Source of the DNA: a virus
Lineage: Duplodnaviria > Heunggongvirae > Uroviricota > Caudoviricetes
IMG/VR virus record: IMGVR_UViG_2563366806_000008
Span: 1-34,125 of that record
DNA length: 34,125 nucleotides
Direction: 5' to 3' (one strand)
The notes under the pieces are model-generated. The model had not been told where the DNA came from, made no database searches, and saw only the letters and a program-made list of their open reading frames with translations. Each line of letters begins with the position of its first letter. Position 1 is the first letter of the stretch. Below, piece by piece: positions 1,440 through 34,125 of this stretch. The translations under genes and the position numbers were made by a program.

Positions 1440-1446
1440 CCGTTTC

Positions 1447-1533
1447 GCTGAAAAACATAACCCATAAAATGCTAGCTGTACCAGGAACCACCTCCTTAGC
1501 CTGTGTAATCTCCCTTACACGGGCTTATTTTTT
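1447..1533 (+). ncRNA. cyaR: CyaR (RyeE) Hfq-binding small RNA, about 87 nt, ending in an intrinsic terminator
   Basis: Sequence gctgaaaaacataacccataaaatgctagctgtaccaggaaccacctccttagcctgtgtaatctcccttacacgggcttatttttt matches my recollection of E. coli CyaR; stem cctgtgtaa/ttacacggg followed by T-run. Confidence 0.8.
1507..1533. repeat. Prophage attachment core, left copy (ogr-proximal junction): aatctcccttacacgggcttatttttt
   Basis: Exact 27-bp direct repeat of 33612-33638; coincides with the last 27 nt of cyaR; phage genes start immediately to the right. Confidence 0.8.
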
Positions 1534-1597
1534 ACGTACAACAAATTGAAATAAAAGGATTTATTTCTGGTTAAGTCCACACATTGACCACATCGAC

Positions 1598-6516: not shown

Positions 6517-7035
6517 TCACAGGCCGATATTACGGCGGTGTTGCTCCAGCCGGTCGACGCCGTTCACCTTCTCAATCATGTTGATGGTGTCGATTTCGAC
6601 CAGCTCCTTACCGTCCATCGTCAGCCGGAAATAGGTGCAGACCACGGAGATTTTCGACTCGGTGTCTTCTCCCTGTTTACCCTCTCCGGTGTCGATTTCT
6701 TTCTGACGTCCACGCATGACCACTTCGACGGCCACCGTTTCGCCGGTATCGTCGCGCTGGTAAGAGCCAGCAAAACGAATCGGCACGGCATCCACACCGG
6801 TTGCGGCGTAAAGCTCCCAGATAACCGAATCCGGGAAGCCCCCGAGCGACCACTCCATTGACAGCGCATCGTCATCAAGGCCGAGGTCTACCGGTGCGCT
6901 GCCGTTCATCCCCGCACCGCGATAGTTTTCGAGCTTACGGGTCAGTTTTGGCAGCGTGACGGACTTTGCGACGCCCTGATAGCTGTAGCCGTTCAGAAAG
7001 ACGTTCATTAACTTGAGTTTGCGCGGCATTGCCAT
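6517..7035 (-). CDS. FII: Tail tube protein FII (172 aa)
   Basis: Synteny FI-FII-E; 172 aa as in P2. Confidence 0.8.
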   Translation of the reverse strand: MAMPRKLKLMNVFLNGYSYQGVAKSVTLPKLTRKLENYRGAGMNGSAPVDLGLDDDALSMEWSLGGFPDSVIWELYAATGVDAVPIRFAGSYQRDDTGETVAVEVVMRGRQKEIDTGEGKQGEDTESKISVVCTYFRLTMDGKELVEIDTINMIEKVNGVDRLEQHRRNIGL

Positions 7036-32528: not shown

Positions 32529-33542
32529 ATGGCAATCAAAAAACTCGATGATGGTCGATATGAAGTGGACATCCGCCCTACTGGACGTAATGGAAAACGC
32601 ATCCGTAGGAAGTTTGATAAGAAAAGCGAAGCTGTCGCTTTCGAGAAATACACGTTGTACAACCACCACAATAAAGAATGGCTATCAAAACCAACAGACA
32701 AGCGACGTCTGTCGGAGCTGACACAGATCTGGTGGGATTTAAAGGGTAAACACGAAGAGCATGGGAAATCTAATCTTGGAAAAATTGAAATCTTCACAAA
32801 AATAACGAATGACCCATGCGCATTTCAAATTACGAAATCGCTTATCAGCCAATACTGCGCCACCCGAAGAAGTCAGGGTATTAAACCTTCGAGTATCAAT
32901 CGTGATTTAACATGTATTAGCGGCATGTTTACAGCCCTGATTGAAGCGGAGTTATACTTTGGTGAGCACCCTATCAGAGGGACAAAAAGGCTTAAGGAGG
33001 AAAAACCAGACACAGGCTATCTCACGCAGGAAGAAATTGCCTTACTGCTCGCAGCTCTTGACGGCGACAACAAAAAGATTGCGATTCTTTGCCTGAGTAC
33101 TGGAGCACGTTGGGGAGAAGCAGCTCGTTTGAAAGCAGAAAATATCATTCATAACCGCGTCACGTTTGTTAAAACGAAAACAAACAAACCACGCACCGTC
33201 CCGATCTCAGAGGCTGTTGCCAAAATGATCGCGGATAACAAACGAGGTTTTTTATTCCCTGATGCTGATTACCCTCGCTTCAGACGAACAATGAAAGCAA
33301 TAAAACCGGATTTGCCAATGGGGCAAGCCACACATGCACTAAGGCACAGCTTTGCCACTCATTTCATGATTAATGGAGGAAGTATTATCACGCTACAACG
33401 GATACTAGGTCACACGCGGATTGAGCAAACTATGGTTTACGCTCATTTTGCTCCAGAGTACCTTCAGGACGCCATTTCTCTTAATCCGCTGAGAGGTGGT
33501 ACTGAGGCCGAGAGTGTCCACACAGTGTCCACAGTAGAGTAA
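32529..33542 (+). CDS. int: Tyrosine integrase (337 aa)
   Basis: 337 aa as in P2 Int; C-terminal catalytic motifs (ARWGE, HALRHSFATH, LGHTRIEQTMVYAH with the Tyr); ends about 70 bp before the att core. Confidence 0.9.
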   Translation: MAIKKLDDGRYEVDIRPTGRNGKRIRRKFDKKSEAVAFEKYTLYNHHNKEWLSKPTDKRRLSELTQIWWDLKGKHEEHGKSNLGKIEIFTKITNDPCAFQITKSLISQYCATRRSQGIKPSSINRDLTCISGMFTALIEAELYFGEHPIRGTKRLKEEKPDTGYLTQEEIALLLAALDGDNKKIAILCLSTGARWGEAARLKAENIIHNRVTFVKTKTNKPRTVPISEAVAKMIADNKRGFLFPDADYPRFRRTMKAIKPDLPMGQATHALRHSFATHFMINGGSIITLQRILGHTRIEQTMVYAHFAPEYLQDAISLNPLRGGTEAESVHTVSTVE

Positions 33543-33611: not shown

Positions 33612-33638
33612 TGACACCCTAAATCTCCCTTACACGGG
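33612..33638. repeat. Prophage attachment core, right copy (int-proximal junction)
   Basis: Exact 27-bp copy of 1507-1533; here followed by one extra T and the inverted repeat gggcttat / ataagccc. Confidence 0.8.
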
Positions 33639-33807
33639 CTTATTTTTTTATGCATAAGCCCTATCTCTGGTAACCGTCTTCCATTGACCACATCGATAGA
33701 ATCCTCCTTCATAGCACGATGCCTTTCACTTATCGGCATCGTGCTCCCACAGGTTCCGGCTACGCACAGCCAGAACGCGCATATTTGACGCTTACCAAAA
33801 AATATTC

Positions 33808-34125
33808 TCACTCTCCACATTTGAATGTCAGACGAGCGACACCATGTAATCCTACACCTTCTGTCTTCAGCTCAACTATTTGCATTTTTTTGCCCTGAGT
33901 AACACAGAAATGAGTTGCATCATTTTTTACTATATTTTCTGCACCAGATATTCTACCCCTGGCTAAAGAAGCTTCGGCTTCGGTGTAGTATTGGTTATCG
34001 AGTTTACGCTGAATATTACTTTTATATGCAAGACCAAATTTACCGATACTTGTCTCATCATTATGCACAGCACAACCAGACATAATAAAAATACTAATTA
34101 ATGATATAGCAGCTATCTTTTTCAT
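33808..34125 (-). CDS. yegR: Small lipoprotein (105 aa), probably host gene yegR
   Basis: MKKIAAISLISIFIMSGC: signal peptide plus lipobox; position just outside the prophage as for yegR next to the K-12 ogrK/yegZ remnant; identity from memory only. Confidence 0.5.
   Translation of the reverse strand: MKKIAAISLISIFIMSGCAVHNDETSIGKFGLAYKSNIQRKLDNQYYTEAEASLARGRISGAENIVKNDATHFCVTQGKKMQIVELKTEGVGLHGVARLTFKCGE

Follow-up and report, generated by a model that had tools for sequence, protein, structure and literature searches.

A probable relic of a P2-family attachment-site arm beside the cyaR terminator of Escherichia coli

The cyaR-yegR locus and its resident prophage

The window, by which we mean the whole stretch of 34,125 nt that was analysed, holds a P2-like prophage lying between yegQ/trhP and cyaR at one end and yegR at the other. 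The att core, 27 bp long, is the cyaR terminator itself and occurs in exactly two copies, one at each junction; two exact copies of the terminator place the integration of this P2-like prophage in the 3' end of cyaR. The ogr end of the prophage adjoins cyaR and its int end adjoins yegR. The features referred to below are as follows.

1-1362: yegQ/trhP, in the 5' part of the window
1445-1533, plus strand: cyaR, the CyaR/RyeE small-RNA gene (Rfam RF00112, 100.7 bits against a gathering score of 47)
1507-1533, plus strand: left 27-bp core copy (attL), aatctcccttacacgggcttatttttt, an exact duplicate of 33622-33648
1534-1596, plus strand: P' arm of the resident P2-like prophage, assigned from its sequence
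Within 1534-1596, between the core and the arm repeats: P' block TGAAATAAAAGGATTTATTT
1574-1581, plus strand: P'1 arm repeat, aGTCCACA
1585-1592, plus strand: P'2 arm repeat, TGACCACA
3' of the P' arm, minus strand: ogr and D
32529-33542: int
33515-33522 and 33526-33533, plus strand: two P-arm Int arm repeats, TGTCCACA, in the 3' end of int (consensus from PMC3448106)
33622-33648, plus strand: right 27-bp core copy (attR)
33649-33696, plus strand: host-side flank, a probable decayed P2-family P' arm
33713-33745, strand unassigned: hairpin B, a perfect 11-bp inverted repeat with an 11-nt loop
33753-33776, minus strand: hairpin A, 9 bp
33808-34125, minus strand: yegR, an open reading frame for a 105-aa lipoprotein, 36% G+C, candidate cargo of a cyaR-yegS islet

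The P' arm of the resident prophage, directly 3' of which stands the ogr terminator hairpin, is of a kind widespread among its relatives. In P2-like phages the core has on either side two or more direct arm repeats to which Int binds; their consensus is tgTGGaCa (PMC3448106), which reads TGTCCACA on the plus strand. The 15-mer CATTGACCACATCGA, common to the P' arm and the host flank, contains one such P2-type repeat, TGACCACA. Scanning viral contigs for this 15-mer yielded 37 P'-arm modules, all 37 of them built in the same order: TGAAATAAAAGGATTTATTT, about 8 variable bases, GTCCACA, the 15-mer, then a GC hairpin with a T-run, found about 1-10 nt past the 15-mer in every P2-like arm examined. 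Eighteen of the modules adjoin a cyaR-type core and 19 adjoin others, and the module is seen in P2-like phages with at least five unrelated cores. Because it stands beside so many different cores, the 15-mer is a conserved working part of the P2-family attachment site and, judged by where it recurs, is not peculiar to the cyaR locus. Within the conserved P' block, at 1552-1571, gaaataaa and tttatttc form a perfect inverted repeat of 8 bp around a 4-nt spacer; this repeat is kept across P2-like arms having different cores.

Similarity of the host flank to the P' arm

Just outside the right core the DNA had been predicted, from the window alone, to match imperfectly the phage arm at the other junction, and it does so: two ungapped 31-mers, one from the flank and one from the P' arm, are identical at 23 of 31 positions, among them an exact 15-mer (cattgaccacatcga; 1582-1596 and 33682-33696) of which these are the only two copies in the window. 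The two strings on which the original prediction relied are both present but were misplaced, those outside the right core by 10-20 nt: tctctggtaaccgtcttccattgaccacatcga lies at 33664-33696 rather than at 33654-33680, and its partner tctggttaagtccacacattgaccacatcga at 1566-1596 rather than at 1567-1597. Local alignment of the 170 nt past each core, the pairwise check that had been proposed, gives a score of 34, far above that of dinucleotide shuffles (15.8 +/- 2.2, with 0 of 2000 reaching 34); the reverse-complement control scores 13. Among real-sequence control windows 1 of 780 exceeded 34, a P'-arm-like stretch in the tail-tube gene with a score of 38. The similarity is collinear with the core, being on the same side and in the same orientation as 1534-1596 at the left core, and an exact 15-mer is expected about 0.01 times per whole E. 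coli genome.

As an arm, the flank is incomplete. Its P'2 repeat, TGACCACA, is intact (33685-33692, inside the 15-mer), and the P'1 position is degenerate, reading CGTCTTCC, which leaves one of the two repeats that characterize a P' arm; the upstream block TGAAATAAAAGGATTTATTT, another such character, is deleted in the window's allele. Homology ends at 33696: within the few bases past the flank 15-mer there is no GC hairpin with T-run, and the bases beyond 33696 resemble none of the phage terminators.

The likeness is closer between the prevalent forms of the two sequences than between the window's own pair, the commonest flank allele being CCCTGGTCACCGTCTTC followed by the 15-mer and the commonest P' arm TTCTGGTCAC-GTCCACA followed by the 15-mer. 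Two rarer E. coli flank alleles are 12 nt longer (4 and 145 of 5426 complete genomes) and align over the entire 63-nt P' arm, from the core through the 15-mer, with identities of 47/64 and 45/64. When the 15-mer is left out, their upstream part is matched by 0 and 2 of 5000 shuffles respectively, and the first 33 nt alone by 15 and 4 of 5000; the TGAAATAAAAGGATTTATTT block is kept in them in the decayed form TGTAAATACGGATTGATCC. Since the long alleles align with the whole arm, the window's allele would be a further-deleted version of a complete, diverged P' arm, in which a 12-nt internal deletion took most of the upstream block. Compared with attP, the spacing between 15-mer and core is off by 15 nt in the window's allele and by 16 nt in the short one that is common. 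Where core and flank meet (33636-33661), an inverted repeat of 8 bp, gggcttat / ataagccc, straddles the boundary; as it is present only in the short allele, it is probably a by-product of the 12-nt deletion.

Could the likeness be a chance match of two short AT-rich flanks? The window's own pair reaches only 23 of 31 and one unrelated control window scored higher, but no shuffle of 2000 attains the observed score, the match has the side of the core and the orientation to be expected of an arm, it strengthens with the commoner alleles and extends to 63 nt in the long ones, and the exact 15-mer is far too rare to be looked for by accident; coincidence is scarcely credible as an explanation.

A 36-nt stretch resembling the P' arm, GATTTCTTTCTGACGTCCACGCATGACCACTTCGAC, lies at 6694-6729 within the minus-strand coding sequence of the tail-tube gene FII (6517-7035). 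It resembles both arm-type repeats too, and its score of 38 against the prophage P' arm is higher than the 34 of the host flank. Other P2-like contigs show the same similarity at a distance of about 5.1 kb from the arm, with scores of up to 43. Going by these alignments, it may have arisen by chance in a constrained coding sequence, serve Int as an internal site or hint at where the arm came from.

Variation within the flank is uneven. In a set of 22 flank alleles whose sampling took no account of the 15-mer, 21% of ungapped columns vary, and the longest invariant block (22-24 alleles) consists of 27 columns around the 15-mer, with variable columns as its neighbours (P about 0.03 for the 15-mer). 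Simple neutral decay would not lead one to expect such a pattern, and the block may owe its constancy to occasional exchange between arm and relic or to residual constraint. In four viral contigs the right junction starts with the P'-type ACGCGTAA, the first 8 nt of the P' arm, where ATGCATAA is usual, and then continues into host flank; such junctions suggest past exchange between prophage arms and the putative relic. It might be supposed from the invariant block and the exchanged junctions that the stretch is now kept by selection or gene conversion, whether as a site for Int, as part of the yegR 3' UTR or through homogenisation with prophage P' arms, and a Shine-Dalgarno-like AAGGAGG that precedes a minus-strand ORF of 10 codons could be added in support. 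A P of 0.03 is weak, however, and partly post hoc; the distance to the core is off that of attP by the 15-16 nt noted above, and the second repeat has been lost. As for the mini-ORF, it has 10 codons in some alleles and 22 in others, with a Shine-Dalgarno-like sequence that also varies, and was rejected as a gene. We therefore regard maintenance of the stretch as unlikely.

Distribution of the flank and its probable origin

A synthetic empty site, in which cyaR is joined directly to the flank and yegR, was searched for in 5426 complete E. coli genomes. Matches were present in 5424, unbroken in many, and in 4563 genomes a single place covered at least 80% of the query. Empty-site strains have the order cyaR, core, then a flank identical to the window's; K-12-type genomes have cyaR, core, a modern P' arm, ogrK, a D fragment, half a core and then the same flank. 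Comparison with empty sites and with K-12, which the original prediction had put forward as a check, thus recovers the window's flank in both. A flank found in empty-site strains, in K-12 and in nearly all E. coli points to an ancestral, fixed relic and not to a recent occupant. The proposal of a relic arm from an earlier P2-like occupant is accordingly upheld as regards the arm, and given up as regards an occupant of this strain, the flank being species-wide. The contrary expectation, that empty-site strains would show the same flank with no relation to any P2 arm, is borne out in its first half and fails in its second, where the alignment statistics are solid.

K-12 shows that partial P2 remnants do form at the cyaR site, and one might on that account trace the flank to a P2-like prophage that recently occupied this very strain. 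But the identical flank follows cyaR directly in strains with an empty site, lies behind the remnant in K-12 and is carried by essentially all of the 5426 genomes, so that this origin is highly improbable. The K-12 P2 remnant, ogrK-yegZ at locI, was reportedly described by Barreiro and Haggard-Ljungquist (J Bacteriol 1992). It resembles the flank relic in site, orientation and phage family, and is what deletion has left of a prophage, its cyaR-proximal end. It differs in being young, about 630 bp long, confined to K-12-type strains and in possession of an intact arm and ogr, whereas the flank relic is much older, common to all E. coli, made up of 48-60 bp of arm and situated outside the K-12 remnant.

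A second scan of viral contigs, anchored on the int side of the core and so blind to the flank, returned 103 right junctions, 100 of which carry the E. coli flank with an intact 15-mer. The flank was also considered as something borne by phages and this was rejected: its matches in the phage database were limited to 'Phage TP', a record of the K-12 remnant region, and to one 'partial genome', both of which include host DNA. Given that all phage records with the flank take in host DNA and that the flank is present throughout the species, it is to be seen as the normal bacterial arm of the att site. The 'partial genome' is ON470606.1 (Escherichia phage vB_EcoM-720R8), which runs past attR into yegR, yegS and the galactitol-operon repressor gene; the two 'hypothetical proteins' it annotates, which extend over the att core and relic arm into the flank downstream, are a boundary error capable of misleading annotators. 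Among the papers available to a full-text search, none was found that ties cyaR or yegR to a relic arm.

The remaining 3 of the 103 right junctions come from hosts whose yegS is 87% identical to that of E. coli (sister Escherichia), and in these three the yegS promoter region stands directly past the core, with no flank. Species-representative genomes (GTDB scan) were searched with the E. coli-type 3' half of cyaR, several GTDB 'species' that proved to be indel-ridden assemblies of E. coli or Shigella being set aside; this half was found only in E. coli/Shigella, E. ruysiae, Kluyvera and two records labelled Enterobacter. In two Kluyvera genomes yegS begins 73-74 nt past cyaR, and neither yegR nor arm-like sequence is present. 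The distance from cyaR to yegS lies within 73-77 nt in the two Kluyvera and the three sister Escherichia hosts together. From the lack of both flank and yegR in Kluyvera and sister Escherichia, the insertion would be specific to the E. coli lineage; its age is bracketed only.

These outgroups bear on the direction of transfer. Phage att regions do carry fragments of host genes, and the core itself is the 3' end of cyaR, so a native E. coli flank might have been acquired by a P2 ancestor through imprecise excision. Against this, P2-like phages carry the module beside no fewer than five unrelated cores, it holds the Int arm repeats of the whole family, the degenerate version is the host's, and Kluyvera and sister Escherichia share the cyaR core but not the flank. 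We consider acquisition from the host very unlikely; by the same comparison the donor of the arm sequence was evidently the phage.

We accordingly take the 48 bp at 33649-33696 to be, with a probability of roughly 0.8, a decayed P2-family attP P' arm left when a P2-type element integrated at the cyaR terminator of an E. coli ancestor. Such an integration would have regenerated the cyaR terminator at the left junction, where selection on cyaR would keep the core intact, while the adjacent arm would have been free to drift, with one Int arm repeat scrambled, 12 nt lost in most strains, the window's included, and the one arm repeat within the 15-mer remaining perfect. The regenerated core being intact, it would still be the preferred P2 attachment site (locI). 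A newly inserting P2 would bring a fresh P' arm to the left junction, and the old relic arm would thereby come to lie beyond the right junction, the arrangement met with in the window. The relic arm would now be functionally neutral. Like the P' arm of a functional P2 attP, it has its particular position relative to the core, the 15-mer with TGACCACA and, in its long alleles, the upstream block, though decayed; it is unlike it in having one arm repeat instead of two, an altered spacing and no terminator, and in lying on the bacterial side of the junction.

The flank is thus of a known kind, an integration scar at a small-RNA gene, and reveals no new mechanism. On this reading the textbook 'bacterial' attachment site would itself be the product of an earlier integration, with the present prophage nested against its predecessor's scar. 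The similarity past the core is no part of the resident prophage, and programs that call prophage boundaries by extending the att repeat, or that take the flank for phage DNA, would be misled by it. If the arm-type site in the flank still binds Int, every locI lysogen would have an attR of partly attP-like character, and integration or excision there could be biased as a result.

The hairpins, a second core and the yegR islet

Beyond the flank, the inverted repeat agcacgatgcc / ggcatcgtgct is a perfect one of 11 bp, as had been predicted, although its arms are at 33713-33723 and 33735-33745 and not at 33693-33703 and 33715-33725. The hairpin that it forms, hairpin B, folds with -21 kcal/mol (z = -4.8) and is situated outside the recognisable arm homology. 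The absence of a U-tract on either strand was also rightly foreseen, and hairpin A has none either. With a loop of 11 nt, no T-run or A-run on either side and 0 sites in a terminator scan, hairpin B is not an intrinsic terminator. Hairpin A pairs fully only as minus-strand RNA, with one U-G wobble pair. An Rfam search of the hairpin region gave three matches with E = 5-6, far below thresholds and none of them on a hairpin, and a published Term-seq table (PMC7815308) has an entry for the 3' end of cyaR but none for that of yegR. Across 11 alleles neither hairpin has a compensatory change, and 8 of 40 stem columns vary as against 11 of 46 unpaired ones. The changes nevertheless favour one strand: 97.3% of alignment cells are paired on the yegR-sense strand versus 88.6% on the other, the observed transitions mostly leaving G-U pairs on the former.

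The position of hairpin B, for which the original prediction had offered a yegR 3' stabiliser or a degraded terminator, invites comparison with the ogr terminator. In P2-like arms the GC hairpin and T-run come within about 1-10 nt of the 15-mer, and here a hairpin comes after 16 nt, as it might if it were the decayed factor-independent terminator of the old element, the counterpart of that of ogr. Yet it has no sequence similarity to the terminator of any P2-like arm, its loop is long, runs of T or A are missing from both its sides, and a second hairpin follows which, like the first, pairs better as yegR-sense RNA; descent from a terminator seems rather unlikely. Hairpin B, together with hairpin A, is most likely a structural hairpin of the yegR 3' UTR, an assignment that we make with low confidence.

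If an element did insert at cyaR, its far end should be sought near yegS, and E. coli has there, beyond the right end of the window, what appears to be a decayed second core. This is a 27-mer, AATCCTCCATACTTGAACTGACTTTTT, that agrees with the core at 18 of 27 positions, or at 19 of 27 in another strain, and ends 85-87 nt upstream of the yegS start codon; in E. coli NZ_CP091700 it is at 2313-2339 of the examined locus, with 18/27 identity and 87 nt from the start codon. It occupies the exact position of the true core in Kluyvera and sister Escherichia, beside a shared block, CTTTCATCCTGTTCT. The probability of such a match in shuffles of the spacer is 0.009, and one other 27-mer with at least 18/27 was found in 68 kb of control sequence. 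Comparison of the body of cyaR with the DNA to the left of the decayed core gave no homology, so that only the core would have been duplicated.

The accepted signature of an integrated element is a target end that is intact at one boundary and has a displaced copy in decay at the other (PMC4383910). At this locus the 3' end of the target is repeated at both boundaries, and the segment between them is absent from relatives in which the flanking genes are adjacent. From left to right the islet is made up of the relic P' arm, the two hairpins, in some strains a remnant of a lipoprotein gene, yegR, an AT-rich spacer and the decayed core. The G+C content of yegR and its upstream spacer is 36-38%, that of the neighbours 50-54%. 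Homologues of YegR are nearly confined to E. coli and Shigella; yegR homologues of 77-83% identity lie in another neighbourhood, beside a gene for a 110-aa lipoprotein, and the nearest homologues from outside E. coli are located elsewhere in the chromosome. Against phage genomes YegR matched only the same two records that bear host DNA, and it has no model in the local copy of Pfam. The interval from yegR to the decayed core was searched for a P arm, int or any prophage gene and has none, its alignment score equalling the shuffle mean and blastn and tblastx returning only noise; the P2-like nature of the islet as a whole is consequently argued from its left end.

In E. coli NZ_CP148323 the yegR stop codon is separated from the hairpins by an additional AT-rich segment of 170 bases (756-925 of the examined locus). 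This segment is found in many E. coli strains and is absent from the window, between 33805 and 33808. Part of it is a 5' remnant of the gene for the 110-aa lipoprotein (tblastn, 47% over 36 residues, E = 5e-7), which in other enterobacteria follows yegR; since the segment holds a remnant of this partner gene, the window and K-12 would carry a deletion, the non-ancestral state.

Altogether the cyaR-yegS interval of about 0.8 kb, with its relic arm, hairpins and yegR, looks like the remnant of one old integrated element, and the relic arm, the two hairpins, yegR and the decayed core would be leftovers of that same element. Two successive events, the arrival of a yegR-bearing element and then that of a P2 later deleted, fit equally well. 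More tentatively, and with the balance somewhat against the whole of it, locI may be the regenerated end of a species-specific islet of about 0.8 kb derived from an earlier P2-type integration, yegR being domesticated phage cargo and the Int site of the flank perhaps able to bind Int. The islet is comparable to the Islander-type islands at tRNA and tmRNA genes (PMC4383910), in which, too, the 3' end of the target is whole at one boundary and a displaced copy of it decays at the other; it shares with them a low-G+C cargo between the ends and absence from sister taxa. It differs in that its target is the gene of an Hfq-binding sRNA, that no integrase is left and that it measures only about 0.8 kb. 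Short allele, long allele and no islet together make a simple marker for dating the yegR islet within Escherichia, and the cyaR terminator looks like a recurrent point of insertion and exchange.

The two records labelled Enterobacter, CP170191 and CP169086 (both titled Enterobacter hormaechei), combine a YegQ 99% identical to that of E. coli and an E. coli-type cyaR with a yegS of only 73% identity. Between cyaR and yegS they have other DNA, 2.0 kb in CP170191 and 0.6 kb in CP169086, and in CP170191 a second copy of the core, identical at 23 of 27 positions, lies just upstream of yegS.
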